Assembly (NCBI GenBank): GCA_046735635.1
Contig: JBKPTT010000167.1
Location: forward strand, 1 to 45,930
Direction: 5' to 3'
From: Acidobacteriota bacterium
GTDB lineage: Bacteria; Acidobacteriota; Vicinamibacteria; Vicinamibacterales; 2-12-FULL-66-21
DNA length: 45,930 bases
The translations under genes and the position numbers were made by a program. Positions 34 to 30,202 of this stretch are shown one piece after another; within the stretch, counting starts at the first letter, position 1; every line of letters starts with the position of its first letter. The notes below the pieces were generated by a model. That model was not told where the DNA came from and searched no databases. It saw nothing but the letters and a program-made list of their open reading frames with translations.

Positions 34-315
34 ATGGCGCAGGTGTCTCTCGATAGCCGGGTCGTCATTCACGAGGATGCGGTGTTCCGCGAACTCGATG
101 GGGAAGCGGTCATCCTTCAGCTCGAGGCGGGGATGTATTTCGGCCTCGATCCCGTCGGCACGCGGCTCTGGCAGCTGATCGAGTCACACGGCGAGCTCCG
201 TCCCGTGCTGGATGCTGCGGTTGCCGAATTCGACGTCGAGCGCGACGTTCTCGCACGCGATCTTCTCGAGCTCGTGGGCGGTCTCGCCGATAAGCATCTC
301 GTGGTGGTTCAATGA
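34..315 (+). CDS. Lasso peptide RiPP recognition element (PqqD family, B1 protein)
   Basis: 93 aa with PqqD pattern (FRELDGEAVIL..YFGLDPVGTRLWQLI..DLLELVGGL); overlaps the lasso B2 gene (ATGA). Confidence 0.92.
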   Translation: MAQVSLDSRVVIHEDAVFRELDGEAVILQLEAGMYFGLDPVGTRLWQLIESHGELRPVLDAAVAEFDVERDVLARDLLELVGGLADKHLVVVQ

Positions 316-701
316 CCGATTTGGCGATTCGTGCCGAGGCGCACGCATGTGCCTTCGGCATCCGCATCGCACTTCGGTGCATGTCCATTCCCCGCCTCGT
401 GACCCTCGTGTCTCGGCTCCCTCGAGTGCAGCGTCCGTCGAGCAATGTCGACGAGTGCGTGCGGGCAGCGGAAGAAGCCGCCGGGCGCGTCGCGCACCGG
501 ACGTGTCTCTTCACGGCGTTGACGGCGTTCGCGCTCCTCGCGAGGCGGGGCCATCCAGTCCGCGTCCTCATCGGGGCCGCCCGCGATCACGGGCTGGATG
601 CGCACGCATGGGTCACCGTTTCGGACGTTCCGCTGACCGCGAGCACGCGAGCGTACGAGCCGCTTTGGGCGTCAGGCATTGATTCCCCGCGGATGACGTG
701 A
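312..701 (+). CDS. Lasso peptide leader peptidase (B2, transglutaminase-like)
   Basis: 129 aa with TCL (catalytic Cys), LIGA and AHAWV (catalytic His) motifs; between RRE and cyclase. Confidence 0.9.
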   Translation: MTDLAIRAEAHACAFGIRIALRCMSIPRLVTLVSRLPRVQRPSSNVDECVRAAEEAAGRVAHRTCLFTALTAFALLARRGHPVRVLIGAARDHGLDAHAWVTVSDVPLTASTRAYEPLWASGIDSPRMT

Positions 702-2584
702 TGGGCGGCCTCGCCGCAATTCTTCGATGGGACGGCGCGCCGATCGCCGCCGACGAGCTCCGGCGCGTGGCACAGGCCTCTGCTCACCGGGGTCCCGATG
801 GCATTCGTCTGGTCTCCCGCGCGAATCGGGACGGCGCGTCCCCGACATTTGCCGCGGCGCATCTGCGCTTCGCGACCATCGAGGCTTCCGACGATCTCCA
901 GCCTCTCGAAACCGCGACCGGGATCGTGTTCGTGTTCGACGGGCGTCTGGATAATCGTCTCGAGCTTCTGGAGCGCCTCGATCTGCGTGATGCCGAACCC
1001 ACGGACGCGGCGCTTGCACTGGCAGCCTTCGAGCGGTGGGGCATCGATTCGGCGTCGCAGATGCTTGGCGACTTCGCGTTCGTGGCCTGGGATGCCCCCC
1101 GATCGCGGCTGATATGCGGCCGCGATCATCTGGGCATCCGGCATCTTCATTTCCACGCGTCCGTCCGTTTCGTCGTCTGCGCGACCGATATCGCGCAGGT
1201 GCTGGCGTATGCGGCCGTTCCCCGGGAACCGGATGCGGCGGTCGCGGCGGATTACATCGCATGCGACGTTCGCAACACCGAGCGCACGTTGTATCGCGGC
1301 ATCAAACGTGTCCCGCCCGGCCACGTCGTCGTCGTTGATTCCGCGGGCGTCCGCATCGAGCGTTTCTGGTCCGCCGAGCCGCGAACTCCGATCCGCTACG
1401 CGAGCGACGGCGAATACGCGGCCCACTGCCGCGACCTCCTGACGCGCAGCGTGGCCGCGCGCATGCGCGGTCCGCGCCCGATCGCCGCGATGCTCAGCGG
1501 CGGTCTGGACTCTTCGTCGGTCGTTACGGCCGCGTGGCGACTCGTGCCGACCGACGGCCCGCGACCACAGCCGTTCTCCATGGTCTTTCCCGACCATGCC
1601 GAATCGGACGAGCGCCTGTTTCTCCGCGCGATCGCCGAGCACTGCGGTACGAGCGTGGTCGAAGTTTTTCCGGATTCGATCACCGCTCAAGCGCTGGTCG
1701 GCCAGGCACGTGCGTGGACGGCCACGCCGGCAATGCCGGCTGATGAAATGGCCGCCACGTTGTACGCGGCGATGCGCACGCGAGGGTATCGAGCCACGTT
1801 GACCGGTGCCGGCGGAGACTTCCTGTTCACCGGCAGCGTGTTTCAATACGCGGATCTGCTTCGTGAGCTCAGGCCGGCCGCGGCCGTGCGCCGCTTCGTG
1901 GACGACTGGTATGCCGGAGAAACCGGCCGGAGCCCGCTCGGCCTGCTGCAGCACGGGGTGTGGCCGCTGCTGCCCGTTCCGGTGAAGAACACGCTGCGCC
2001 CTTTCGCCAGACGTCTGATCTCGTACACGGATCACCCGAAGTGGCTGCGGATCGCGCGCACGCCCGCCGAGGAACTGCCCGAGCCGCCCCGCGGCGGCAG
2101 CTTCGCAACCGAAGAAGTGACACGGCAGCTCGGGTGCGGGATGCACGCGTTCTTCGTGGAATGCGCCGAGCGCTACGCCGCTCACGCGGGGATCGAATTA
2201 CGGCATCCGCTGCTCGATCGGCGCCTCGTGCAGTTCGCACTCGACATACCCGACACGCAACGCAAGCGCGGCAGATTTACCAAGTTCATTCTGCGGCAGG
2301 CGCTCGCGGACGATCTTGCGGAACCGGTGCGTCAAAGGCGCACGAAAGGAGATTTCTCGCACGCGGTCGCCCAAGCCATCGAGGCGCTCGGTGGAGAGCG
2401 GTTTTTCGCGGCGCTGCAGATTGCCGAGGCGGGCTGGGTAGATGGCGGTATGGTCGCCGCGAAATACCGCACGATGCGCCGCCAGTATCCGCGCGGATCG
2501 CAGGTCTACGGAGATCACGTGCCGGCGCTGTGGATGATCACCGCGGTCGAGCTGTGGTACCGATCAGCGTTCGGCCGCCTATAA
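701..2584 (+). CDS. Lasso peptide cyclase (asparagine-synthetase-like, C protein)
   Basis: HRGPDG, GRLDNR, GDFAF, RDHLG, SGGLDSS ATP motif, LTGAGGD, PLLDRRLVQF; N-terminal Ntn Cys replaced by Gly (MGGLA) as in lasso cyclases; ATG 701 overlaps B2 stop (GTG 698 alternative). Confidence 0.92.
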   Translation: MGGLAAILRWDGAPIAADELRRVAQASAHRGPDGIRLVSRANRDGASPTFAAAHLRFATIEASDDLQPLETATGIVFVFDGRLDNRLELLERLDLRDAEPTDAALALAAFERWGIDSASQMLGDFAFVAWDAPRSRLICGRDHLGIRHLHFHASVRFVVCATDIAQVLAYAAVPREPDAAVAADYIACDVRNTERTLYRGIKRVPPGHVVVVDSAGVRIERFWSAEPRTPIRYASDGEYAAHCRDLLTRSVAARMRGPRPIAAMLSGGLDSSSVVTAAWRLVPTDGPRPQPFSMVFPDHAESDERLFLRAIAEHCGTSVVEVFPDSITAQALVGQARAWTATPAMPADEMAATLYAAMRTRGYRATLTGAGGDFLFTGSVFQYADLLRELRPAAAVRRFVDDWYAGETGRSPLGLLQHGVWPLLPVPVKNTLRPFARRLISYTDHPKWLRIARTPAEELPEPPRGGSFATEEVTRQLGCGMHAFFVECAERYAAHAGIELRHPLLDRRLVQFALDIPDTQRKRGRFTKFILRQALADDLAEPVRQRRTKGDFSHAVAQAIEALGGERFFAALQIAEAGWVDGGMVAAKYRTMRRQYPRGSQVYGDHVPALWMITAVELWYRSAFGRL

Positions 2585-2604: not shown

Positions 2605-2775
2605 ATGCCGGATGAAACACCGCGTGGCGGCGGCAAGTCGGCCGCCGGCCAGGGGAAGCGGCCGTACTCGAAGCCGAAATTAATCGAGTACGGATCGGTC
2701 GCGAAGCTCACGCAGGGTACGCGAACCAAACAAGCGGACACGCCGGCCGCAGGGTTCCGCAAAGTGTGTCTCTAG
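2605..2775 (+). CDS. Lasso peptide precursor (A), 56 aa
   Basis: MPDETPRGGGKSAAGQGKRPYSKPKLIEYGSVAKLTQ|GTRTKQADTPAAGFRKVCL: YxxPxL..G leader motif, Thr at -2, Gly1 core start, Asp8 acceptor; GGAGG RBS; it is the C-terminal part of track ORF 1960..2775. Confidence 0.9.
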   Translation: MPDETPRGGGKSAAGQGKRPYSKPKLIEYGSVAKLTQGTRTKQADTPAAGFRKVCL

Positions 2776-3905
2776 TCGTCGACGAGCACCGCCAGTATCT
2801 TTCCGATTCCGCCCGCCTCGAAGCGTACCGCCGCGCCATTCGCGAAGTCGTCCGGCCGGGAATGGCCGTCGCCGATCTCGGCAGCGGCACCGGGATCCTC
2901 GGCCTGTTCGCCTTGCAGGCTGGCGCCGCGCGCGTCTACTCGATCGAGGCAACCGGCATGATCGAGATCGCCCGCGCTGTCGCGGCGGCAAATGGATTCG
3001 GCGATCGCTTCCACGGCGTTCAACGGCATTCGCAGGAGGCGGACCTGCCGGAGCGAGTCGACGTCGTGATATCGGACTTCGTCGGACGATTCGGGTTCGA
3101 TGCCGACATTCTCGAGCTCTACTCTGACGCCGTCGCGAGATTGTTGAAACCCGACGGCACGCTGATGCCCTCCCAGATTGTCCTTGGCGTCGCGCCGGTC
3201 GAGCGCGTGGACATGGACGCACAGGTCCGCTTCTGGAATGCGCAGAAGGCGGGGATCGATCTTTCGCCCGCCTCGGAATGGGCCGTGAACACCGGGTACC
3301 CGGTCGCGCTGGAGTCCGGCGACTTGCTCGCCGATGCTGCCGATGTGATTGCTATCGACCTCCCGTCCCGGCCAGAAACGCCCCTGCGCGCCGCGGCGAA
3401 CTTCCCAATACGCCGTGCCGGGAACCTCCATGGAATCGGCGGCTGGTTTTCCGCGGCTCTTTCGCCTTCCGTGAGCATTACGAATTCGCCGCTGGCTGCT
3501 GACCGGCTGGGCCGCCGGAATGTCTTCTTGCCGCTCGGTGATCCGTGGTCGGCCACCGTCGGCGAATGCGTGCAGCTTTCACTGACCATCCTCCCCAATC
3601 AACACATCGTCAACTGGACGGTAACCCGCTCGAAGGCGGATGGCGCGATATCGCACCAGCGTCACTCGACGATGCGCGGCATGCTGACGAGCCGTGACGA
3701 CCTCGCACGCACGAGACCTGATTTCGTTCCCGAGCTGACTCCGCGGGGTCGCGGCCGTTTGACGCTGCTGCAACTCTGTGATGGCAGGCGCGCGTTGAGT
3801 GAGGTCGAGTCGGAGATGTTCGCGCGCCATCCGGATCTCTTCACCTCGTACGCTGACGCGGCGGCCTTCGTTGCCGAGGTAATTGCCGGGTACACGAAGC
3901 CATGA
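2766..3905 (+). CDS. Protein-arginine-methyltransferase (PRMT)-fold SAM methyltransferase with C-terminal PqqD/RRE-like segment
   Basis: HRQYLSDSARLEAYRRAI, DLGSGTGILGLFALQAGAARVYSIE, LPERVDVVISDFVG, LKPDGTLMP and HGIGGWF follow PRMT motif order; tail LLQLCDGRRALSEV resembles PqqD helices. Confidence 0.8.
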   Translation: MSLVVDEHRQYLSDSARLEAYRRAIREVVRPGMAVADLGSGTGILGLFALQAGAARVYSIEATGMIEIARAVAAANGFGDRFHGVQRHSQEADLPERVDVVISDFVGRFGFDADILELYSDAVARLLKPDGTLMPSQIVLGVAPVERVDMDAQVRFWNAQKAGIDLSPASEWAVNTGYPVALESGDLLADAADVIAIDLPSRPETPLRAAANFPIRRAGNLHGIGGWFSAALSPSVSITNSPLAADRLGRRNVFLPLGDPWSATVGECVQLSLTILPNQHIVNWTVTRSKADGAISHQRHSTMRGMLTSRDDLARTRPDFVPELTPRGRGRLTLLQLCDGRRALSEVESEMFARHPDLFTSYADAAAFVAEVIAGYTKP

Positions 3906-4819
3906 CGCTGTACCACGCATACGGGCGCGTTGTGTCGAGCGACATTCCGCTTCCAGAGCTGCCCGTTACTACGGGAGGCGAGGCGGACATCGAGCTCACG
4001 TGGAATGCGCTCGACCGAACAGCCCGGGGGCCATGGACCGTCCTGTGGCGGTTTTCATCGGGTGAGCCATGGGTGAGCACGTCTCGGGCGGATGGCCTCA
4101 CGCACCTGAGGTTTAGCAAGTTCGCGGACTGTGCCGTGTCACCACGGCACATCGCGGTCTGCCGGCGCGGTCATGCCGCACAGGCCACGCTGCGGCATCT
4201 CGTTCTCGACCAGGCGCTGCCGCTCGTGCTCGCGGCTCGCGGCTGCCTCGTGGTTCACGCGAGCGCCGTCACCGACGGGACGCGTGCGTTCGTGATCGCG
4301 GGAACCGCGGGTGCGGGCAAATCGACGTTGGCTGCTCTGCTCGCGCGAACCGGCCTGAAGGTTCTTGCCGATGATGGGGTTGTGATCGAACGTGTAGGTG
4401 GAAGAGTTGTAGCGGTGCCGTCGTATCCCGGACTCCGCCTATATTCCGACTCGGCGATCGCAGCGGATCTGGTAATCGAAGACGGCACCGACGTTGCTGA
4501 GTACAGCCGCAAGCTGCGATTCTTCGCATCTCGACGTGCCGAGGACGCCGTTGAATCCATTCCGTTATCGGCGATTTATGTATTGCACCCCTCCGTCGGC
4601 TGCGTCAGCGTTCAGGCGCTGTCGCAACGCGACGCCGCGATTGCCGTACTGGCGCAATCGTATCGTCTCGATCCCGGCGATCCGCGGGCATTGGTGGCCG
4701 AGTTGGACCGTATCATCGCGATCGCTCCTCCCGCCTGGCGGCTCTCGTACCCACGGGACCTCCTCCGCGCCGCCGAAGTGGTTTCCGCACTCTTGTCGCA
4801 TGCCGCGTCGTTGCCCTGA
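3902..4819 (+). CDS. HPr-kinase-like P-loop kinase (paeninodin-type lasso peptide kinase family)
   Basis: VHASAV, GTAGAGKSTL Walker A, LADD, and PGLRL motifs; in lasso cluster. Confidence 0.8.
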   Translation: MTLYHAYGRVVSSDIPLPELPVTTGGEADIELTWNALDRTARGPWTVLWRFSSGEPWVSTSRADGLTHLRFSKFADCAVSPRHIAVCRRGHAAQATLRHLVLDQALPLVLAARGCLVVHASAVTDGTRAFVIAGTAGAGKSTLAALLARTGLKVLADDGVVIERVGGRVVAVPSYPGLRLYSDSAIAADLVIEDGTDVAEYSRKLRFFASRRAEDAVESIPLSAIYVLHPSVGCVSVQALSQRDAAIAVLAQSYRLDPGDPRALVAELDRIIAIAPPAWRLSYPRDLLRAAEVVSALLSHAASLP

Positions 4820-4821
4820 CG

Positions 4822-5460
4822 ATGCCACTGCACGTTGCGAGCACCGAAGCCCGTTACGTTCCGAGTTCGGAGGAACGCGTCACGTTTCAGCGGCAGCACT
4901 GGGTCCGTCTGTCCGGATTTCTGGAAGTTCGGCTTCTCGACCGTGTCGTCAAGGAGATCGCGCGGGCTGTATTCGACGAAACGGCTCATCGCTCCGTCGC
5001 CGAGAGATCTGTCGATCTCAGATCGATCGGTTGTGCCGCCTCCGAGGTCCTCGTTCTTGTGTGCAACGACCCGGTCGTGCTGCGAGGGATCGAGGACATT
5101 ACAGGTTGCCGGCCCCTGACGCGATTCAACGGCTCCATTTACCGCATGACGGAACAGTCGGGTCATCAGCAGGCCTGGCACGATGATCTGGTGGATGGCC
5201 GCCGCGTGACGTTGAGCGTCAACCTGGGCGCGGGCTATCGCGGAGGCGAGCTCCAACTGAGGCAACGCGGTGCGGCGCGCGCGTTTGCCGTAGTGCCGAA
5301 TACCTGTCCGGGCGATGCGGTCTTGTTCAGGCTCGATGAGTCGATTGAACACCGTGTGACGCCGGTCACGAGTGGCGTCAAGACGGCGTTCGCCGGATGG
5401 TTCCGTCGTGGCAGACCGCTCCGCGACGAGCTCAAGCGCAGTGTAGAGTTGGTCACGTGA
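4822..5460 (+). CDS. 2OG-Fe(II) oxygenase (prolyl-hydroxylase-like), paralog 1
   Basis: WHDD (HxD), SVNL..YRGGEL, PGDAVLF, EHRVTPV, KTAFAGWF. Confidence 0.85.
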   Translation: MPLHVASTEARYVPSSEERVTFQRQHWVRLSGFLEVRLLDRVVKEIARAVFDETAHRSVAERSVDLRSIGCAASEVLVLVCNDPVVLRGIEDITGCRPLTRFNGSIYRMTEQSGHQQAWHDDLVDGRRVTLSVNLGAGYRGGELQLRQRGAARAFAVVPNTCPGDAVLFRLDESIEHRVTPVTSGVKTAFAGWFRRGRPLRDELKRSVELVT

Positions 5461-5588: not shown

Positions 5589-6428
5589 ATGGCCCAAGAC
5601 ATCGACGTTCTTACAGCCCCCACACTCAAGAACCTTCGCACCCGCTGGTGGGACGATGCGTTTACGGCGTTCGTGCGGGAGACGGTGCAGCCTCGTCCCG
5701 GGCGCAGGATCCTGGACGTCGGATGCGGGATCGGTACTGCCGAAGTGAATCTTGGACGGCTGCCGCTTACGCAGGTGACGCTCGTCGGCATCGACCATGT
5801 CGTCGAACGCGTGGTGGAAGCGCACGCGTCGGTTCGCTCTCACAATATTCGGGCCGCGTTTGCGGCGGCCGACGCATGCGGCTTGCCATTCTCGGACGGC
5901 GCGTTCGACTCCGTTTTCTGTGTCGCGCTGCTTCAACACATTGCCGACGTCGGGGAGGCGGTTCGCGAGATCGCGCGCGTGACCCGTCCCGGCGGGCGCA
6001 TCGTCGCCGTCGAACCAGACAACTCGGCCCGATATTTCTACAGCTCGTCGCCCGCCGGCATGCGCGCCTACGAGTTGTCTGGACAATTCTTTTCCGGCCT
6101 CATCGAGCGCGGGGACGCGACCGACCCGGCAGTCGGGCCAAAGCTGCCCGCGCTCTTCGCGAGTTGCGGGATCCACCTCTCGGGCGTGCAGCTTTTTCCC
6201 GTGTCGCGTGCGCAGCTCGGCGCGCCGCCGCCCGCAGTCTGGACGGCGAGGCGCCAGGCGATCGAGCACGCGATTTCGAAAGCCGGCGACGTGGGGTTGA
6301 GACGTCTGGGACAGGACTATCTGAAACTCCTCGACGCGTACGCCGAGGAGGCAAAGGCCGCGGGCCCTGCGTTCGTCGAGTTGCAGAATACGATGCTGTT
6401 TGCGACTCTCGGGCAGCGCGAGGAGTAG
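5589..6428 (+). CDS. Class I SAM-dependent methyltransferase
   Basis: ILDVGCGIG, GID, DACGLPFSDGAFD, RVTRPGG. Confidence 0.88.
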   Translation: MAQDIDVLTAPTLKNLRTRWWDDAFTAFVRETVQPRPGRRILDVGCGIGTAEVNLGRLPLTQVTLVGIDHVVERVVEAHASVRSHNIRAAFAAADACGLPFSDGAFDSVFCVALLQHIADVGEAVREIARVTRPGGRIVAVEPDNSARYFYSSSPAGMRAYELSGQFFSGLIERGDATDPAVGPKLPALFASCGIHLSGVQLFPVSRAQLGAPPPAVWTARRQAIEHAISKAGDVGLRRLGQDYLKLLDAYAEEAKAAGPAFVELQNTMLFATLGQREE

Positions 6429-6436
6429 CGGGCTGC

Positions 6437-7075
6437 ATGCTGATGCAGATCGACCGAGCGGGAACGCGCCTCGAGCTCGAGGGCGCGGAGATCGCGCGGG
6501 CGCACTTCGATCGACATCATTGGTTGAAGCTGCCCAAACTGCTCACAGCGCCGACGCTGAGCGACGTCCGGCGGCAGCTTGCGAGCGCCGCGTTCGTTGA
6601 AGTCCGACACACCAATGTGACGCCGCCGTCGATCGACGTTTGCCTGGAGCCGAACGCGTTGTCGGCGATGCTCGAGCTGTTCTGCAATGATCCGGTCGTG
6701 CTCGGCGCCGTCGAGGCGTTGACCGGATGTGCGCCGCTCGTGCGTTTCGACGGGTTCGTCTATCGACTCGCCCCGGGGGGCGGACATCATCACAACTGGC
6801 ACAACGACGTGCTGCAGGGGCGTCGGGTCGCAATGAGCATCAACCTGGAAGTCCGGCCCTACGAGGGCGGCAAGCTGCTGATTCGTGCGCGTCACACCGA
6901 ATGCGTGCTCGCGGAGGTCGAGAACACCGGCCCCGGCGATGCCGTGCTCTTCCGGATCGATCCGGCACTCCAGCATCGTGCGACGACCGTCACGCAGGGC
7001 ACGAAGACGGCCTTCGCGGGATGGTTCCGGTCGGAAGCGCCACTGCGCGCCGCGCTCGCGCAGGGCATCGCGTGA
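6437..7075 (+). CDS. 2OG-Fe(II) oxygenase, paralog 2
   Basis: C-terminal 212 aa of track ORF 5648..7075; WHND, SINL..YEGGKL, PGDAVLF, QHRAT, KTAFAGWF; start ATG 6437 or 6443. Confidence 0.85.
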   Translation: MLMQIDRAGTRLELEGAEIARAHFDRHHWLKLPKLLTAPTLSDVRRQLASAAFVEVRHTNVTPPSIDVCLEPNALSAMLELFCNDPVVLGAVEALTGCAPLVRFDGFVYRLAPGGGHHHNWHNDVLQGRRVAMSINLEVRPYEGGKLLIRARHTECVLAEVENTGPGDAVLFRIDPALQHRATTVTQGTKTAFAGWFRSEAPLRAALAQGIA

Positions 7076-8394
7076 TCGTCAGCGATCTGCACGACGCTGC
7101 CCTGTCCGCCTGGCGCGACGCCGGCGTACGCGATCGCGTGCTGATTCATGTCGATGCGCATCACGACGCTGATTCACGCGAGTGGGACTTCGTGACCATC
7201 TCGAACTTCGTCTGGTGGGCGATGTCGGAAGGGATCGTCCGCGAGGTGTATTGGGTGGTTCCGGAGCCAAGCTGGCGAATGTCCTCCAGACCTGCAATGA
7301 TTGCGGACGCGCTGCTGGCGCTCGCGCGTCAGCACGATTCATCGGCGGGCGTCGAGGTGAACGCGTATGGCTTCACGACGGAAGTGGCCGGCAAACGGTT
7401 CACCGCCTGTCCGCTCTCGCGTTTGCCGCCCTTAGCCGGCGCGCTCCTGGACATCGACATCGACTACTTCCTCATCGCAGACATTGCCGCCGAGAGGCCG
7501 CCGGTTGATCGCACGGCGCCGTGGATGTGGCCGGTCGACCTGCTGCACGCACTCAAGGGGTTGGAGACCGACCCTACGATCGTCACGATTGCCACGTCCA
7601 CACGCGGCGGATTCACCCCGCTCGAGTGGAAATATCTCGGAGACGAACTGGCAGCGCGGCTGTCAGGCGCACCGGTTGAGGGCTACGACCGCATTCGCGG
7701 TGGATTCGAGGCGGAGTGCCGGGCCGACGGCGATGTGGCCGAGGAGCATTATCGGCGCGCGATGGAACTGATGCCGGTGAGTCCAGGACCGGCGTATCGT
7801 TTGGCGCTTCTCCATCTTGCTCGCGGAGCCGACCGGGAAGCGCGCCGCCTCTTCGGCGCTGTCCTCGAACGCGATTCGACGTACCGAGGTCCAGACTCGA
7901 GGGCACGGCGATGGCACGATCTTGGAGACGTGATCCGTGCGCGGCAGGGATACGTCGACCTTCTCCGGCTCGATCCGTCCAATCCGTACGCGGAGCTCGG
8001 AATCGCGCAGCTTGCTGCTGACCGCGATGATCATCCGGCGGCGATTGCACACTTCGAACGTGCGCTGGCTGTTTGCGGCACGCTCGTCGACGCGGAACGC
8101 GGGATTGCGCAATCGTTCGAACGAGTCGGCGAACGCGATCGAGCCGCGCGGCATTACGCGCGATCCATTGAGCTGGAGCTCGGCGGCCACGCGCCATTGT
8201 CCGCGCCGATTGCGAGTTGCCCGCCCCGGGTGCTCGATGACACCCACTGGGAGAATCATCGGCGTCTCGCGCGGCTTCGGGGAGACGACCGCTGGCTCCG
8301 GGCGGTCGATCACGTGGCACCTTCTGAGCCGCCGCGGCGGCAGGCATCGCCTAGCACTGCTTTACCAGATCGCGGGCGAACAGCTGAGTCATGA
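7072..8394 (+). CDS. UPF0489/peptide-arginase-like metallohydrolase fused to TPR repeats
   Basis: GTG 7072 overlaps upstream TGA; LIHVDAHHD, TISNFV, LLDIDIDYF, STRGGFTP; C-terminal TPR-like helices (AEEHYRRAMELMP, LRLDPSNPYAELGIAQL, AIAHFERALA). Confidence 0.75.
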   Translation: MIVSDLHDAALSAWRDAGVRDRVLIHVDAHHDADSREWDFVTISNFVWWAMSEGIVREVYWVVPEPSWRMSSRPAMIADALLALARQHDSSAGVEVNAYGFTTEVAGKRFTACPLSRLPPLAGALLDIDIDYFLIADIAAERPPVDRTAPWMWPVDLLHALKGLETDPTIVTIATSTRGGFTPLEWKYLGDELAARLSGAPVEGYDRIRGGFEAECRADGDVAEEHYRRAMELMPVSPGPAYRLALLHLARGADREARRLFGAVLERDSTYRGPDSRARRWHDLGDVIRARQGYVDLLRLDPSNPYAELGIAQLAADRDDHPAAIAHFERALAVCGTLVDAERGIAQSFERVGERDRAARHYARSIELELGGHAPLSAPIASCPPRVLDDTHWENHRRLARLRGDDRWLRAVDHVAPSEPPRRQASPSTALPDRGRTAES

Positions 8395-8601
8395 TCTCGC
8401 GCGGAGGTCGCGGAGATCGCGGAGATTCCGGACCGCGTGCGGGTCTCTCCCCCTTGTCGCGCCACGCGCGACGTGGCGAACGCACAACCCTCCGCGTTCT
8501 CAGCGTCCTCGGCGCGAGATCCGTGCGATCTCCGCGCGAGATCAGTGCCTTCCCTGCGAGAGCACTCTCTCGCACCTCGGATCTGACAAAGTAGAGTCTA
8601 G
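8351..8601. mobile_element. MITE-like element with imperfect terminal inverted repeats bounded by CTAG
   Basis: CTAGCACTGCTTTACCAGATC ... GATCTGACAAAGTAGAGTCTAG; internal CGCGGAG/CTCCGCG repeats; related shorter copy at 40495-40585. Confidence 0.5.
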
Positions 8602-9374
8602 TGGCGAAGCAGGGCTGGGAAGGATGGGACGAGTACGCGCCGTTCTATGACTGGGAGAACGCGCGCACCGTCGCACGCCGCGACGTCGCATTCTGGCAGC
8701 GGCTGGCGGCCGCGCAGTCCGGGTTCGTCCTCGAGCTCGGGTGCGGGACAGGCCGCATTGCCGTCCCGGTTGCGCGCGCGGGCGCCCGGCTGATCGGGGT
8801 CGATCGATCCGCGCAGATGCTCGCCCGCGGGCGTCAGCGCCTGCGCCGCGCACGGCTCGCCGGCCGCGCCTCGCTCGTCCGCGGCGACATTCGTTTCCTG
8901 CCGTTCCGATCCCGACCGGGGTTCGACCTCGTGATGGCGCCGTACGGCATCCTTCAGTCGCTCACCCGCGAAGGCGACCTGAAAGCCACGCTGCAATCGG
9001 TCGCGCGGGTGCTCCGCCGCGGCGGGCTTTTCGGCATCGACCTCGTGCCTGATCTGCCTCGCTGGACCGAATACGAAGGACGCACCAGCATGACCGGCAG
9101 GAAAGGCAGGAGCACGCGCGTCACGCTCGTGGAATCAGTCCGGCAGGATCGCGGCCGGCGTCTGACCATCTTCGATCAGGAGTACATCGAGCAACGCGCA
9201 CGCGAACGTCGTGTCCATCGATTCACGCTCACGTTCCGCACGCTGTCGGTCCCGCAGATGACACGTCGCCTCGAAGCAGCGGGCTTCCGGGTCACTGCCG
9301 TGCTCGGCGACTACCGCGGCGGTCCGTGGGATGCCCGCGCCGACGTCTGGGTCATCATCGCGGAGCGCCGCTGA
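8601..9374 (+). CDS. Class I SAM-dependent methyltransferase
   Basis: YAPFYD, VLELGCGTGRI, GVDRSAQML, RGDIR, LRRGG. Confidence 0.88.
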   Translation: MAKQGWEGWDEYAPFYDWENARTVARRDVAFWQRLAAAQSGFVLELGCGTGRIAVPVARAGARLIGVDRSAQMLARGRQRLRRARLAGRASLVRGDIRFLPFRSRPGFDLVMAPYGILQSLTREGDLKATLQSVARVLRRGGLFGIDLVPDLPRWTEYEGRTSMTGRKGRSTRVTLVESVRQDRGRRLTIFDQEYIEQRARERRVHRFTLTFRTLSVPQMTRRLEAAGFRVTAVLGDYRGGPWDARADVWVIIAERR

Positions 9375-10015
9375 TGCTGCAGGTCGGCATCAACCGCGTC
9401 TTTCTTCCCACCGACGCGGATATTCGCGAGTGGCGCGCGTGCTACGCCGAATCTCTTTGCATTCGACTGCCGGAATTCTTCGACGCACGCCTCGTGACGT
9501 GGCTGCGATCGCGGCTCGCGGGTGCCGCGTTTCAGGAACGGGTTCACGCGGGAATCGATCCTCCTCCCGTCGATCTCGCCCTGGCCGATCGCGCCCTTCT
9601 GGCACTGGTCACGACCCTCGTGAACGACAGTGGCGTGTTCAACACTGTTCGCGCCGTCAGCGGTTGCGATCCGATCGGCTGCTACGAGGGAATCATTTAT
9701 CGGATGGAGCCCGGGGGACATCACCACGACACGTGGCATGGGGACATCGACGGGAATCGCATGGTGACGTTGAGCGTCAACCTCGGCGATCCATACGAAG
9801 GCGGCAGGTTACAGATTCGCGAGCGGTCGTCGGGCAGGCTCGTGCACGAAGCAGCCAACACACGGGCGGGTGATGCCATTCTGTTCGCGCTCGGGGACGA
9901 CCTCGAACATCGTGTCACCGAGGTGACAGGCGCCATGCCGAAGCTCGCGCTGGCCGGCTGGTTCCAGCGCCGGCCCGCGGCGCTCCTTGCGCTGAAGCGC
10001 CGGATGGGAGCCTGA
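9374..10015 (+). CDS. 2OG-Fe(II) oxygenase, paralog 3
   Basis: ATG 9374 overlaps upstream TGA; WHGD, SVNL..YEGGRL, GDAILF, EHRVT, KLALAGWF. Confidence 0.85.
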   Translation: MLQVGINRVFLPTDADIREWRACYAESLCIRLPEFFDARLVTWLRSRLAGAAFQERVHAGIDPPPVDLALADRALLALVTTLVNDSGVFNTVRAVSGCDPIGCYEGIIYRMEPGGHHHDTWHGDIDGNRMVTLSVNLGDPYEGGRLQIRERSSGRLVHEAANTRAGDAILFALGDDLEHRVTEVTGAMPKLALAGWFQRRPAALLALKRRMGA

Positions 10016-17415: not shown

Positions 17416-20379
17416 TCACCTTGCCCTGAGGATGGCGACGGGCAAGGCGTCGAACGCCTCGCCAAGAAAGATGAACGCGTTGTCGCCCGCCCTTGTGGCG
17501 CGCAGCTCTGCGCCGGTGATCACGTTGGAGAAGGTGCGGTCGCGTAACGCCGGGGGCAACAGGAGCCGCGATGTCTTCCAGGCATCGCCTCCGAGCGGCA
17601 GCGGATGATCCGCGTCCACGATCCGGGCGCACAGCCGCGGCGCGACGAACAACACGGCGTCGTCGCCTGCGGTTCGCGCGAACCCGACCGCGCCGGCCGG
17701 CACGGACACCTCGATCGGTATCGGCACGTACCCGCCGCCGAGGAACACGTTGGGGAGGTCGCGCCGAAGTCGGAGGCCGGCGGCGGTGACGAGCAGCTTG
17801 ATTCGCCCGTCGGGCCAGTTCCGTGCCGCTTCGGCAATTGCGTTCCGCCGATCGCCGACAGGCTGCGCCAACAGCGCGTCGACTCCGTCGAGCAACCGTG
17901 CACGCACCGAAAAATCCACCGGACGACGGTTATCCGGATCGACGAGGCTGAGGTCCCAGAGATCGGTGCCCTGGTAGAAGTCCGGAACACCGGGCGCGCC
18001 AATTTTCAACGCGATCTGCGCGAGAGAGTTGATCATGCCGAGCCGCGCCATTCGCTGCTGAAGCGGCAGCATCGCCGCAAGGAAACGCGCGCCGGACGCG
18101 CCGGTCAGCGACCGCTGGACGAAATGCCGCAGGGCGGCCTCGTACGGTTCGTTCGAGGTCAGCCAACTCGTGTGGACCTTGGCCTCCTTCACGGCCTTCG
18201 TCATGTACTCGGTCAGCCGCTCGGCGAGTGCCGGTGGCGCTTGGGCCGTGTCCGGCGGAAGATCGGCCGGCCACATCCCCACGGCCGCCTGATAGAAGCG
18301 GTATTCGTCGACCCGATCGGGCGCCGGCTCTCCCTCGACGAGCGATCGATGCGGCCTGTTGATTCGCATCCACTTCGAGACCTCCCGTCCCCACTCGTCC
18401 GGCAGTTCCGAGAGCACGTTGATCCGGGCGCGCACGTCCTCGCCGAGCTTTGTGTCGTGGGTTGCGGTCGCGAGCATCTCGAAGGGCCAGTCGGCGGCGC
18501 GCGCTGCGTTCGCATCGTGGAACTCGTCAACCGATCGGCCGAACCGCGACGGGTCGCCGCCGACCTCGTTCAGCGACAGCAGCACGTTGTATCGGTAGAA
18601 CGCCGTATCCTCGAGGCCCTTTGCCTGTACCGGGCCGGTGTATTGCTGCAGCTTCATCGCGAACTGCAGGCGCGCCCGCGCCTCCTCGTCATCGGCGGGC
18701 GGATAGCCGCCACGGCGTTCCTGGCCTGCGGGCGGCTCCTTGTCTTCGTGGATGTCGCGCGGGAGCACGACTTCGCGAAAGAAGTCGAACAGCGTCGACT
18801 CCATGGCTGGATTGCGCCGCCGCGCACGAACGATTGCCCGGGACACGACCGCCCGATCCTCGGTCGTCCATCCGTTTTCATCGACGTACGTCCGGTAGAC
18901 CGGGAAGCAGGCGATCACTTCCGTGATGACGTCGCGGAGCGATTCCAGCGTGAAATCACGCGATTTCCGGTTGCTCTCGCCGATCCGATTGAGCATGTGC
19001 GCGAGCACGTTCAGCTCGCTGGCCATCGCCGTGTTCATGATGAGCCGCTTGCTGGCGTACAGCACGTCGTCGAACGGCTCGGTGTGTCCGGTGAGCTTCG
19101 CGTAGACCCGGCGCGTGCGCCGCGCCTGCCTCGTGTCGATGAAGATCCCGTTGAGATCGTTCAGGAAGTTGTAGCCGGTCGTGCCGTGCACCGCCCAGCG
19201 GCGCGGCAGTCGCTCGCCGCCCGACAGAATCTTTTCCGCGACGACGTAAAACGGTTTGTCCTCGGGGGTGGCTTCCACACCGGCCGAGCGGACCGCCAGC
19301 TGCTGAAGCATCACAAAGTACCGCGCCGGATCGAACAACCCGTCCGGGTGATCGACTCTGACGGCATTCACCTTGCCATCGTGAATGAGCTCGCCGAGCA
19401 GCCGATGGGTCGCCTCGAATACTTCCGGGTGCTCGACGCGGATGCCGGCCAGCGTGTTGACGTCGAAGAACCTCCGGTAATTTATCTCGTGGGAGGCGGT
19501 GCGCCAGTACGACAAACGGTACGCCTGTGCCTCGAGCAGATCGTGAAGCGCGTTGAAGCTTGCGCTGTTGCCGGCCGCGCCGTTGAATTTCTTCACGGCG
19601 CAGCCGATTGCGTCGGCGACGCGGGGCTCCTCGGCGACGAGCCGCTCGAGCCTCGCGCGCGCCACTTCCTTTTCGCGCTGGCGTTCCGTCCGCGGATCGG
19701 GATGGGTTTCGGTGTACGGTGGCAGCTTTTCGAGCGACGTGATGATGCTGAGGAACTCGTTGAGCTGCGGGTTGCCCTCCCCCAGAACGCCCCGAAGTGT
19801 TTCGGCCGCTGCCGCGTACACGCGTGCGGCCTGCCGCGGATCGACCGGCAGCTCGTTATCGAAATATCGCACCACGAGGGTGCTGCCGGTGAACGCGAGT
19901 TGAAGCTCGCCCCGTTCGAGCACCTGCCCGTACTGATCGCCCAGGATCGGCAGGAGCAGCTTCGCGTGCAGCTCCTCCTTGACGGGCCGCCAATCGATGT
20001 CGAAGAAGGCGGCGGCGGCTGCGCTCGGACCGTTCTCCAAAACATCGTTCCACCATGCGTTGGTTCCCGTTCCAATGCCCATGTGGTTGGGAACGAAGTC
20101 GACGACGTGTCCCATGCCGTGCTCCGAGAGCACCCGACTGAACTCGGCGTGCGCGCCAGGGCCACCCACTTCGGGATTGATCTCGTTGTGGTTGCAGACG
20201 TCGTAGCCGTGCGTGCTTCCCGGCGAAGCCGTGAAATAGGGCGACGTGTAGCACGCTGCCACGCCAAGCCGCGCGAGGTACGGAACGACGTCGCGGGCCT
20301 GAGTCAGCGGAAACGCATGATGTATCTGAAGGCGGTAAGTGCTCGCGGGCACGTAGAGCGGGCGGTTTGAATCAATCAC
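17416..20379 (-). CDS. treY: Malto-oligosyltrehalose synthase
   Basis: PASTYRLQ, GSTHGYDV, DFVPNHMG, INYRRFFDVN, RVDHPDGL, EKIL, ATHDTK, SLVDPDNRRPVD. Confidence 0.95.
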   Translation of the reverse strand: MIDSNRPLYVPASTYRLQIHHAFPLTQARDVVPYLARLGVAACYTSPYFTASPGSTHGYDVCNHNEINPEVGGPGAHAEFSRVLSEHGMGHVVDFVPNHMGIGTGTNAWWNDVLENGPSAAAAAFFDIDWRPVKEELHAKLLLPILGDQYGQVLERGELQLAFTGSTLVVRYFDNELPVDPRQAARVYAAAAETLRGVLGEGNPQLNEFLSIITSLEKLPPYTETHPDPRTERQREKEVARARLERLVAEEPRVADAIGCAVKKFNGAAGNSASFNALHDLLEAQAYRLSYWRTASHEINYRRFFDVNTLAGIRVEHPEVFEATHRLLGELIHDGKVNAVRVDHPDGLFDPARYFVMLQQLAVRSAGVEATPEDKPFYVVAEKILSGGERLPRRWAVHGTTGYNFLNDLNGIFIDTRQARRTRRVYAKLTGHTEPFDDVLYASKRLIMNTAMASELNVLAHMLNRIGESNRKSRDFTLESLRDVITEVIACFPVYRTYVDENGWTTEDRAVVSRAIVRARRRNPAMESTLFDFFREVVLPRDIHEDKEPPAGQERRGGYPPADDEEARARLQFAMKLQQYTGPVQAKGLEDTAFYRYNVLLSLNEVGGDPSRFGRSVDEFHDANAARAADWPFEMLATATHDTKLGEDVRARINVLSELPDEWGREVSKWMRINRPHRSLVEGEPAPDRVDEYRFYQAAVGMWPADLPPDTAQAPPALAERLTEYMTKAVKEAKVHTSWLTSNEPYEAALRHFVQRSLTGASGARFLAAMLPLQQRMARLGMINSLAQIALKIGAPGVPDFYQGTDLWDLSLVDPDNRRPVDFSVRARLLDGVDALLAQPVGDRRNAIAEAARNWPDGRIKLLVTAAGLRLRRDLPNVFLGGGYVPIPIEVSVPAGAVGFARTAGDDAVLFVAPRLCARIVDADHPLPLGGDAWKTSRLLLPPALRDRTFSNVITGAELRATRAGDNAFIFLGEAFDALPVAILRAR

Positions 20380-20553
20380 TAATTCTGAATCCCTAATCCC
20401 TAATCGCGAATCCCTGATCGTCCAATCAACCTATCCCTAATCGCGAATCCCTAATCGTCGAATCAATCTATCCCTAATCGCGAATCACAAATCCGCGGAT
20501 CCGTCCATCCGCTAATCGCTGGCGCTTTGAATCAACCACTATTCTGAATCCCT
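20361..20553. repeat. 37-nt tandem repeat (about 2.4 copies, 20397-20486) bracketed by a 33-34 nt direct repeat (20361-20394 and 20521-20553)
   Basis: TCCCTAATCGCGAATCCCT(G/A)ATCGTC.. units; GGCG(G/C)TTTGAATCAA(T/C)CACTA(A)TTCTGAATCCCT present twice. Confidence 0.75.
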
Positions 20554-20587
20554 CGCGAACTGCGACGCGCGAATCGCGAACCGCGAC

Positions 20588-22522
20588 TCACCTCTTCCTC
20601 AGTATGACTCCGCCGGGCCGCTTGAAGTGAACGATAGGAGGCCCGCTCGTGTCGATCTCCGGCGGCCGCGGGTCGAGTGCAAACAGCGGCTCTTCCGTAG
20701 TGAGCACGACCTCCCACTCGGAGCCGCTGTCCAGGCCGAATTCCCCAATTGAACCCAGCCCGACCTCCCCCGCGGACCGGAAACGCACGATTACGCAAAA
20801 CACGGCCGCACCGTCCGCGCGTCTCAGGGCAATCGTGTCCTCATCGACGGCGAAGGCACATCCTGAGAGATCGGCGGACGCGGAGAGCGCCGGGTTGTCC
20901 AACCGCAGCGCGATGAGCGCACGATACAGTTCCCGCACGGCTCTGTGCGCCGGTTGGTCGCGCTCCGTCCAATTCAACCGGCTCCGCTCGAACGTTTCGA
21001 CGGACTGCGGATCCGGAATGGCGCGCTGCGCCTGCGCGTCGGAGAATTCGGGGAATTCGGCGAATTCGCGACGCCGGCCTGCCGTGACACGTTCTCCGAG
21101 GCTCGGCTCGAGGTCGGTGAAATAGCAGAACGGCGTGCGTGCGCCCCATTCCTGACCCATGAACAACAGCGGGGTCATGGGCGCTGTCAGCAACAGCGTT
21201 GACGCGGCCCGCCACGATTCGATGGGAATCGCCGTGTTGAGGCGATCCCCCATCGCCCGATTGCCCACCTGATCGTGATTCTGCAGGCAGACGATGAAGC
21301 GGTACATGGGGACTCGTGACGGGTCGCTGCCGCGTCCGGCGGCGTGCCGGTCGGACTTCTGTCCTTCGAACAGCCATCCCCGACAGAGCGTCTTCGCAAG
21401 CTCCGCCGTCGTGCCCTGGAAATCGCCGTAGTAGCCGAAACTGTCACCCGCGAGGAGACGCCGCACGATGTGATGGAAATCGTCGGCCCACACTCCGTCG
21501 AGTCCCCAGCCGCCCTGCGCGGCGTCCTCGACAATCGAGGCGTAATTGCGATCGTCTTCCGCGTGAACGAATATCTGCCGGGCCGACCCGCTGCGGACGT
21601 CTTCTGCGATGGTCCGGACGATCGTGCCGCTCTCTTCCTCGAGCAGCGTTTGGACGGCATCGATTCGCAATCCGTCGAGGTGATACTCGCGGATCCAGTG
21701 CACGGCGTTGTCGAGGATGAACCGGCGGACCATCGCGGATCCTGGTCCATCGAGATTCACGGCGCTCCCCCACGGAGTCGACCGAGCGTCGGTGAAGTAG
21801 CGATCGTTGAACACGCTCATGTAGGCGCCTTCGGGGCCGAAGTGGTTGTAGACGACGTCGAGGATCACGGCGATTCCGAGATGGTGTGCGCGATCGACGA
21901 GGCGCCGCAGGTCGTCGGGCCCGCCGTACGCGCGCGACGGGGCGTACAGACAGACGCCGTCGTAGCCCCAGTTACGCGATCCCGGGAAATCCGCGAGCGG
22001 CATCAGTTCGACCACTGTCACACCGAGATCCCGCAGACTCTCCAATCGCGTCGTTGCGCCCGCAAACGTGCCCTCGGGAGAAAACGTGCCGACATGCAGC
22101 TCGTACACGATGCGATCCGCCGGAGGGCGCCCACCCCAGTGCGCGTCCGTCCAACGAAACGTGGACGGATCGATCACCTGCGAAGGGCCGTGGACGCCGT
22201 CTGGCTGGAAGCGCGACGCGGGATCGGGGCGCGGCGCGCCGCCGTCGACGCGATAGCTGTAACGGTCGCCGGGAGCGGCGCGATCGACGATCAAGTCGAA
22301 GACCGCGTCGGGATCGCGGGGCGCATGGTATTCGCCCGCGGCGCGGCCGTCGTGGATCACGACCGTGAGGTCGCGCGCGGCCGGAGCCCACACGCGGAAC
22401 CGTACGCCGTTCGAGAACGGCAGCGCACCAAAAAAGGGGGTGAGCCCCGGGTTCGACCACCTGCTTCGCGAATCGTCAGGGAGTCTGAACCCGGCCCGAC
22501 CCCAAGAGATCGACGATGCCAT
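20588..22522 (-). CDS. treZ: Malto-oligosyltrehalose trehalohydrolase
   Basis: [58 protein letters not shown]; exact start uncertain (47-nt overlap with treS end). Confidence 0.93.
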
Positions 22523-25500: not shown

Positions 25501-25802
25501 AGCTCGGTGATCACGCGAATGTCGCGTCGGTGCGCTTCGTCGATGAAGCGATCGAAATCGGCGAGCGTGCCGTAGCTCGGATGGATGTTCTCGTAATCGG
25601 CAATGTCGTACCCGTCGTCGCGCAGTGGCGACGGGTAGAAGGGCAGCAGCCACACGGTGTTGATGCCGAGCCTCTGGAGGTATTCGAGCTTTTGCGTCAG
25701 GCCGGCGAAGTCGCCGATGCCATCGTTGTTGCTGTCGAGAAACGCACGGACGTGCGCCTGATAGATGACCGCGTCTTTGTACCAGAGAGGATCAGTCGAC
25801 AT
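22476..25802 (-). CDS. treS: Trehalose synthase fused to maltokinase (TreS-Mak/Pep2)
   Basis: [50 protein letters not shown]; C-terminal [24 protein letters not shown]; start ATG 25802. Confidence 0.95.
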
Positions 25803-25818
25803 CAGCGCATCGCCGGAT

Positions 25819-25917
25819 TTGCCAAAACTGCCATGATTGCCACAATTGCCACAATTGCATTTCTTCCCTGTTGTCGAGTCCTCCGGCGATTCTGGCAATT
25901 GTGGCAATTATGGCAAT
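25819..25917. repeat. Inverted arrays of 9-mer repeats (TTGCCACAA / TTGTGGCAA)
   Basis: Four TGCCA-core 9-mer units facing three TGGCAA units across the glgE-treS gap. Confidence 0.7.
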
Positions 25918-27908: not shown

Positions 27909-27950
27909 TCAGCAATCAGCAATCAGCAGTCAGCAGTCAGCAATCAGCAA

Positions 27951-27952
<2 letters not shown>
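27909..27952. repeat. Heptamer tandem array (TCAGCAA/TCAGCAG x6)
   Basis: Directly visible between glgX stop and glgE start. Confidence 0.85.
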
Positions 27953-30116
<2,164 letters not shown>

Positions 30117-30202
30117 ATTGGTCGTAGGCACAGAAGGATTTAGGTACCACGTTAAAGGCCGGGGTTGCAAGAAACTCGGCCGTGCGGTTGGCGCTTTTCT
30201 AA

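Follow-up and report, generated by a model that had tools for sequence, protein, structure and literature searches.

A 45,930-nucleotide stretch of Acidobacteriota DNA (contig JBKPTT010000167.1, hereafter the window) carries, at 7072..8394 on the + strand, a gene whose product joins an arginase-like N-terminal domain to tetratricopeptide repeats (TPRs) and which lies in an operon for a lasso peptide, a peptide that ribosomes make and that is modified after translation (RiPP). We propose that this 440-aa protein is probably a Mn-dependent peptide arginase that converts R3 and/or R15 of the lasso precursor to ornithine and uses its TPRs for docking. A binuclear-metal site (probably Mn2+) would hydrolyse the guanidino group of core R3 and/or R15 to give ornithine and urea, and the TPR domain would dock the substrate or a partner, either the leader or the B1/B2 machinery. 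The proposal builds on the fold, the metal ligands, homology, operon context, synteny, fusions to lasso proteins and the enrichment of arginine in associated cores, all of which we observe.

Gene start and domain architecture

The gene lies inside a longer listed open reading frame (ORF; 6727..8394, +, 555 aa), whose part 5' of 7072 overlaps the preceding 2-oxoglutarate (2OG)-oxygenase gene in a different frame. As in a first-pass annotation of this DNA, made from the sequence alone, we place the start at GTG 7072. This codon shares 4 nt (GTGA) with the TGA stop of the oxygenase gene, and the aligned start is identical in 10 of the 25 other rows of our alignment A1. A database protein 96% identical to the window protein has its annotated start 17 aa earlier, corresponding to ATG 7021, which is a possible alternative; the domains are unaffected either way.

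The product begins with a ureohydrolase (peptide-arginase-like) domain (residues 1 to ~202; 7072..7677; all coordinates in this section are on the + strand), delimited from an AlphaFold2 (AF2) model, Foldseek, VIA-align and a family profile. Within it lie three short motifs: motif 1, D5-L6-H7-D8 (7084..7095); motif 2, HVDAHHD (residues 26-32; 7147..7167); and motif 3, LDIDIDYF (residues 126-133; 7447..7470). An all-helical region follows (residues ~203-415; 7678..8316), assigned from the predicted model and from three TPR families that exceed their Pfam cut-offs on residues ~221-369 (TPR_2, 36.3 bits against 27; TPR_12, 35.6 against 30.1; TPR_19, 28.5 against 25). The fusion of the two longer motifs to TPRs, which the first-pass annotation had reported, is therefore upheld. 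The last residues (419-440; 8326..8391) form a low-confidence, presumably disordered tail with a predicted local distance difference test score (pLDDT) below 50, and most relatives in A1 lack it. The full-length model is otherwise confident (pLDDT 91.6; predicted template modelling score, pTM, 0.87), which hints that the arginase-like and TPR domains are held in a fixed arrangement.

Relationship to peptide arginases

Sequence comparison ties the N-terminal domain (N-domain) to a single characterised structure. Queried against the PDB with phmmer, the N-domain alone has one match, the peptide arginase OspR (8brp; E 2.2e-5, three collinear stretches). A profile from our N-domain alignment A2 (41 sequences; locus L014 was excluded for one in-frame stop) finds the same structure at E 2.3e-14, with the runner-up at E 0.26. 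The search for relatives yielded 34 proteins at E<=1e-3, of which 31 match along the enzyme (2 of these being fragments) and 3 over the TPRs only, together with 47 genomic loci. Every one of the 41 family N-domains matches the NF052474 profile, 'peptide arginase, FlmR/OhkR family', at E<=0.01, and at E<=1 PF12640 is matched by 28 and PF00491 by 23 of these A2 members. Several relatives exceed the PF12640 cut-off of 27 bits, both among fused forms (P0168, 35.3 bits; P0123, 29.7) and among distant ones (L046, 55.8; L047, 43.2; L042, 27.1). In the ESM Atlas, the UPF0489 family set is common to 27 of 30 named matches.

Structure comparison leads to the same place. Since a Foldseek search with the full-length model gave only TPR proteins among the matches listed, the N-domain was folded and searched on its own. 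Its AF2 model (pLDDT 92.9, pTM 0.91) has the alpha/beta/alpha fold of the arginases (ureohydrolases), and three OspR 8brp chains head the Foldseek ranking (E 2.2e-6 to 1.4e-5), with agmatinases, arginases and guanidino-hydrolases ranked below them. VIA-align, run separately from Foldseek, also places OspR first (8brp_A: Z 15.5, root-mean-square deviation 2.5 A, 167 residues, 24% identity), ahead of a match at Z 10.2 and then of ureohydrolases at Z 8-10. The first-pass annotation had made its peptide-arginase assignment depend on an arginase fold, and OspR ranks top by both sequence and structure. Judged from the alignments and the predicted model, the N-domain is a distant but clear relative of the RiPP peptide arginases.

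The family is large. Counted as representatives of 50%-identity clusters, matches to the A2 profile number 1592 with a threshold of E<=0.001, 735 with one of 1e-10 and 319 with one of 1e-30.

Metal-binding residues

The Mn ligands of OspR are His12, Asp39, His41, Asp43, Asp165 and Asp167 (PMC10028609; papers cited by PMC number are drawn on here for the passages available to us). HMMER alignments pair all six with residues of the window protein: H7 of motif 1 with His12; D28, H30 and D32 of motif 2 with Asp39, His41 and Asp43; and D129 and D131 of motif 3 with Asp165 and Asp167. These residues are invariant in 26 of 26 sequences of A1 and 41 of 41 of A2. In a wider alignment of 117 sequences, made up of the window protein and 116 proteins of 400-600 aa from 150 representatives listed (the other 34 were dropped on length), they are kept in 113-117 sequences at 30-60% identity. 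On these alignments we take the HVDAHHD and LDIDIDYF motifs not to be due to chance, and the conservation of the ligands has the pattern expected of a working metal site rather than of a pseudoenzyme.

Two further features point to peptide arginases in particular. First, I43 aligns with OspR Ile73, which takes the place of the arginase proton-shuttle His and is a peculiarity of peptide arginases (PMC10028609). Second, two of the peptide-arginase motifs quoted in PMC12703449, DXHXD and LDIDLDYFSC, have their counterparts in DAHHD and LDIDIDYF of the window protein. Motif 1 has conserved features of its own across the 117 sequences, with an acid two residues before the His in 114 (E in 104), N or D at the position just before it in 98, and D8 in 97.

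The lasso operon

The arginase-like/TPR gene belongs to a single + strand operon of overlapping or closely spaced genes, an arrangement of translational coupling. At its head are B1, a PqqD-type RiPP recognition element (RRE) protein (34..315; PF05402 E 2.5e-14; NF033536), the leader peptidase B2 (312..701; PF13471; NF033537 51.8 bits, cut-off 33) and the cyclase C, an asparagine-synthase homologue (698..2584; PF00733; NF033535 E 1.1e-95). B2 exceeds its NCBIfam cut-off, whereas B1 and C match strongly yet fall under their 'exception' cut-offs. The 56-aa precursor A (2605..2775; MPDETPRGGGKSAAGQGKRPYSKPKLIEYGSVAKLTQGTRTKQADTPAAGFRKVCL) has a leader with YxxPxLxxYGxxxxxTx and a predicted 19-aa core that begins with residue 38 and contains, in core numbering, Asp8, R3 and R15. 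The marks of a lasso cluster, namely B1, B2, C, a precursor leader of the form YxxPxL...T(-2) and an Asp or Glu acceptor within core positions 7-9 (here Asp8), are thus all present in the window, and the lasso assignment and the two core arginines of the first-pass annotation both stand. Because the contig begins at window base 1, the cluster may extend upstream.

Next to the precursor are a methyltransferase homologous to protein arginine methyltransferases (PRMTs; 2766..3905, +; family scan) and an HprK-related kinase (3902..4819, +; family scans). All 60 PDB matches listed (of 71) for the former are PRMTs, the best at E 7e-27. The arginase-like domain is single-copy in the window's genome, which its nearest loci place in the Acidobacteriota, close to Vicinamibacterales. 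A second B1-like N-terminal fragment at a contig end of the same genome (G000:C224:1-99, -) may mark a second lasso cluster or an assembly break.

Distribution, synteny and fusions

We scored the genomic loci by tblastn with the window proteins and retained the 42 whose N-domain match spans 190 aa or more. Among these, C is present in 34, the HprK-like kinase in 36, B1 in 31, a PRMT homologue in 17, the combination of B1, C and kinase in 29, and at least one lasso gene in 38. The four without lasso genes are L013, on a 2.9-kb contig; L042, which is archaeal, 25% identical and at a contig start; and L035 and L040 (L035:9986-11536 and L040:9968-11554), from Ramlibacter albus and an Armatimonadota metagenome-assembled genome (MAG). 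The L035 member is flanked by genes for a DnaE-like polymerase and for a two-partner-secretion exoprotein.

Pfam analysis of the neighbours reveals a common order of B1, arginase-TPR, B2, C, A and kinase, often followed by a PF14907 nucleotidyltransferase, and B1 is within 700 nt of the arginase-TPR gene in 22 loci. The link to the lasso machinery extends to fusions, for which ten long or odd representatives were scanned: P0043, P0099 and P0168 are fused to a B2 peptidase domain, and P0123 and P0154 to PqqD, one of these two also having a truncated radical S-adenosylmethionine (SAM) domain. Of the rest of the ten, three are joined to MOP/MurJ-like exporters, and a GT41 glycosyltransferase and a B12-radical-SAM domain are each found once as fusion partner. 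Given these exporter, GT41 and radical-SAM fusions (P0112, P0130, P0167, P0059, P0160 and P0154), the arginase-like family has roles or partners beyond lasso clusters.

In the window's phylum, the arginase-like domain occurs in 6 of 201 sampled genomes (the window's genome included) and a B1-like match in 100, so the enzyme is an accessory rather than a universal lasso gene. Two members have unusual sequences or surroundings. In a Binatus MAG (L014:10001-10666), the arginase-like domain has one in-frame stop in a variable loop, which reflects either a pseudogene or a sequencing error. In a Melainabacteria MAG (L016:11458-16297), the arginase/TPR gene is followed by a tandem array of five 2OG-oxygenase paralogues, of which the one scanned has a C-terminal PqqD domain.

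Arginine in associated lasso cores

We compared the predicted lasso cores at loci with the enzyme to those in 40 regions around the best B1 matches in the phylum sample. Precursors were found by one leader-motif pattern and kept if a cyclase or kinase match lay no more than 1.5 kb away; about 8 kb was inspected on each side, and core starts are predicted. Arginine occurs in 30 of 31 cores with the enzyme (28 loci, including the window with its R3 and R15) and in 14 of 22 without it (19 loci), a difference whose Fisher p of 0.0023 is overstated since related genomes are non-independent, and which compares sets sampled unequally, the 'with' set by enzyme across phyla and the 'without' set by B1 in one phylum. 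Arginine likewise makes up 63 of 574 core residues (11.0%) with the enzyme and 27 of 450 (6.0%) without. Lysine, in contrast, is present alike in the two sets (24/31 versus 15/22, p 0.53) and its share is alike too. An HMM re-check of the 'without' regions finds an arginase-like domain in only 1 of 40 (L055), and one 'without' precursor (L068) looks spurious.

The first-pass annotation had read the PRMT homologue and the arginase as two Arg-directed enzymes acting on the two core arginines. The gene at 2766-3905 does encode a true PRMT homologue, but the pairing is weakened by clusters that have this gene and lack the arginase. Of 8 such loci with a precursor, the predicted cores are entirely free of Arg in 4 (L052, L053, L054 and L056), and 7 have Lys in every core. 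For instance, in L053, the nearest arginase-less cluster, from a genome of the same order and with a PRMT homologue 48% identical to the window's, the core TGGTTTIEPHGFKQPCL has no Arg and, aligned by eye, a Lys at the position of R15. Since the cores of the four loci lack arginine, the substrate of their PRMT homologue cannot be core Arg. Support for an Arg-directed pair is thus mixed, and we do not adopt it.

As a separate observation, a sub-family of cores ends in Cys-Leu, among them the window core (2716-2772) and those of L033, L034, L038, L039, L053, L060 and L080. That the C-terminal Cys is conserved hints that it is modified further or has a role independent of disulfides.

Comparison with known systems

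The combination of an arginase with TPRs is already proven biochemically. PbsE is a TPR-containing arginase that converts Arg to L-Orn in vivo and, with MnSO4, in vitro; it acts only after bis-hydroxylation of the flanking residues, and a hydroxylase then acts on the Orn (PMC12257519). The same is reported for BipC, which is placed in the UPF0489 superfamily (PMC12707348). Like the window protein, PbsE and BipC have an N-terminal arginase domain followed by TPRs in one chain (PMC12257519, PMC12707348), and their RiPP pathways also encode an RRE protein and hydroxylases. The AlphaFold 3-predicted ligands of PbsE (His10, Asp31, His33, Asp35, Asp165 and Asp167; PMC12257519) have a spacing almost identical to that in the window protein. 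Moreover, PbsE-type clusters whose precursors lack Arg also lack the arginase (PMC12257519), a joint absence that parallels our comparison of cores in lasso loci. PbsE and BipC differ from the window system in that they belong to biphenomycin(-like) biaryl peptides, made with an oxidative enzyme that depends on multinuclear non-heme iron (MNIO) and a B12-radical-SAM enzyme in Bacillota and Actinomycetota, and in that their target is a fixed FHAFRF, bis-hydroxylated first. Motif 1 of BipC is EEHxE (PMC12707348) as against DLHD here, and the likeness of both enzymes to the window protein is drawn from their published descriptions.

With OspR (PDB 8brp), FlmR and OhkR the window protein shares the six Mn ligands, DxHxD, LDIDxDYF, the Ile in place of the arginase His shuttle and a C-terminal S..G(Y/F)TP..W block. 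It differs from them in its TPRs, of which the passages of PMC10028609 and PMC12703449 available to us make no mention for these enzymes, and in its precursor, which is of the lasso type and not NHLP, N11P, SCIFF or orphan. Peptide arginases are described as pfam12640 enzymes, and lasso is absent from the precursor types given for them in the same passages (NHLP, N11P, SCIFF, SCCRRSCN and DD(I/V)LF; PMC12703449).

The first-pass annotation had also drawn an analogy to the enteropeptins, in which the arginase KgrD converts Arg to Orn on a RiPP and N-methylation follows (PMC12703449). This analogy fails at the level of the enzyme: KgrD belongs to another family, pfam00491, is 15.8% identical to OspR and needs a thiomorpholine neighbour, and the methylase that follows it is an Fe-S enzyme (PMC12703449).

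Finally, the window cluster resembles kinase-type lasso clusters such as bsf and paeninodin in its split B1/B2, YxxPxL leader and HprK-like kinase (PMC10368454), and the PF14907 nucleotidyltransferase of such clusters is frequent in the window's relatives. No arginase or TPR protein is mentioned for them in the available passages of PMC10368454. In the open full-text literature, a scope that leaves aside subscription papers and PDF supplements, including surveys cited in PMC12703449, we found no arginase in a lasso cluster and no ornithine-containing lasso peptide. The lasso context of a TPR peptide arginase appears to be new.

Proposed function and alternatives

From this evidence we infer the reaction, its metal, the target residue or residues, when the reaction takes place with respect to cyclisation, the order of action and what the TPRs do; for the product, ornithine is a reasonable inference. 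Several points weigh against a peptide arginase acting on core arginine, beyond the sampling and core-prediction limits stated with the arginine comparison. The N-domain of the window protein matches no Pfam family even at E<=10, PF12640 included (cut-off 27 bits), and the whole-protein Pfam scan likewise gives no arginase or UPF0489 match; the comparison to PF12640 proposed at first pass thus succeeds for many of the relatives and fails for the protein itself. The whole protein matches NF052474 at E 2e-6 and 27.5 bits, and the N-domain alone scores 32.2 bits, both far short of the cut-off of 350. A third peptide-arginase motif, EEH(N/H)EAF, is replaced by SDLHDAAL, in which the His alone is kept, and OspR Glu11, proposed to hold the guanidine (PMC10028609), aligns with Leu6, a position occupied by N in 68 of the 117 sequences, by D in 30 and by L in only 3. 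A stretch of ~60 residues that separates the second from the third aligned block in OspR is missing here, and OspR is a functional homodimer (PMC12703449). Among the cores, no Arg position is conserved, Arg is found without the enzyme too (the 14 of 22 noted above), and the lone Arg-free 'with' core, in L037, comes from a second cluster, which lies 6.6 kb away from the gene. Lastly, L035 and L040 have unrelated genes, and none of the lasso type, across the 10 kb upstream and 7-10 kb downstream of the match. Because the window protein falls below the PF12640 and NF052474 cut-offs and deviates in one motif, we file it, on its sequence, as what appears to be a divergent lasso-linked variant of the peptide arginases.

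This divergence lends some weight to a different chemistry. An active ureohydrolase-fold enzyme of the lasso pathway might act on a guanidine methylated by the PRMT homologue, or on another peptide amidine or amide, a reading that we consider unlikely. Such an enzyme would account for the deviating motif 1, with Leu6 in place of OspR Glu11, and for a family too divergent for the PF12640 and NF052474 thresholds; a PRMT homologue is at hand in 17 of 42 loci, and the fold matches include guanidino-acid, proclavaminate, metformin and formiminoglutamate hydrolases. However, 25 of the 42 enzyme loci have no PRMT homologue, whichever measure is used the nearest relatives are Arg-to-Orn peptide arginases, and the enrichment of core Arg suits plain Arg-to-Orn conversion.

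A mainly non-catalytic scaffold or chaperone, in which the TPRs and a degenerate arginase fold hold the precursor or B1, B2 and C together, is improbable. TPRs are protein-binding modules, and the B2 and PqqD fusions and the frequent place of the gene between B1 and B2 do suggest physical association with the core machinery, but the near-complete retention of the six metal ligands (113-117 of 117 at 30-60% identity) speaks for catalysis, and the fused forms P0168 and P0154 have no TPRs yet keep the arginase domain. Still more improbable is a role outside the lasso peptide, on a free guanidino metabolite or in immunity or export, with the gene merely travelling with the cluster: L035 and L040 without lasso neighbours, and P0112, P0130, P0167 and P0059 with their fusions to MOP/MurJ-like exporters or a GT41 glycosyltransferase, would fit it, but lasso genes accompany 38 of 42 loci, the operon is translationally coupled, there are fusions to B2 and the RRE, and the closest homology is to peptide-acting and not small-molecule arginases.

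We therefore return to a TPR-docked peptide arginase that forms ornithine on the lasso precursor. Whether the new amine is then N-methylated or hydroxylated by the neighbouring methyltransferases or oxygenases is a matter of speculation, as is N-methylornithine, which the first-pass annotation had entertained, in the window's lasso peptide. More broadly, and tentatively, the window protein may represent a large unstudied clade of TPR-fused peptide arginases that, in soil phyla including Acidobacteriota, Binatota and Nitrospirota, is the signature tailoring enzyme of the kinase-type lasso clusters and makes the first ornithine lasso peptides. In this possible but doubtful extension, the TPRs would provide docking on the B1/B2-leader complex, and the new delta-amine of the window's peptide would go on to be N-methylated (by the daptide-like or the PRMT-homologous methyltransferase), hydroxylated (by the 2OG oxygenases) or both.

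Ornithine characterises non-ribosomal peptides and seldom occurs in ribosomal ones. Its formation is a modification so far unreported for lasso peptides in the open literature searched, and a lasso-dedicated arginase, if true, would place it on a scaffold valued for stability. It would also explain a conserved gene named only 'TPR protein' in many lasso clusters and serve genome mining as a marker of the many heavily tailored lasso peptides that uncultured soil phyla encode. Peptide arginases are also sought as engineering tools (PMC12703449).

Neighbouring genes and other features

Between the kinase and the arginase-like/TPR gene, the operon (+ strand) encodes a first 2OG-Fe(II) oxygenase (4822..5460; family scan), a probable class I SAM methyltransferase (5589..6428) and a second 2OG-Fe(II) oxygenase (from ~6437, 6437..7075; family scan, translation and comparison with locus L001), whose stop overlaps the GTG of the arginase-like/TPR gene. 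The methyltransferase is assigned from its translation, in which we take a glycine-rich stretch to be SAM-binding; a gene 84% identical is found in L001. A 475-aa ORF at 5648-7075 was considered as one gene and rejected as a composite of this methyltransferase, which is in another frame, and the second oxygenase.

Downstream of the arginase-like/TPR gene are a third SAM methyltransferase (8601..9374, +), for which the top-ranked NCBIfam model is NF041820, the daptide-type RiPP methyltransferase (E 1.9e-27, 96.3 bits, cut-off 175), and a third 2OG-Fe(II) oxygenase of uncertain start, 9326 or 9331 (9331..10015, +; ORF and family scan). A 67-aa ORF at 8391-8594, in the gap before the methyltransferase, was rejected as a gene: it has no family match, and the equivalent gap in L001 is only ~80 nt. 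The 206-nt gap itself (window 8392-8602) has a long, stable hairpin-rich fold (-107.4 kcal/mol, z -5.07, with 0 of 200 shuffles as good) and could be a regulatory or repeat element.

Housekeeping genes, yebC and ruvCAB, lie downstream of the lasso operon. The region 16440-45230 is housekeeping-like, with a LigD primase-polymerase, FtsH, phosphoglucosamine mutase and PdxJ, and an alpha-glucan operon of the TreS/Mak-GlgE-GlgB type lies on the - strand at 17416-30170.

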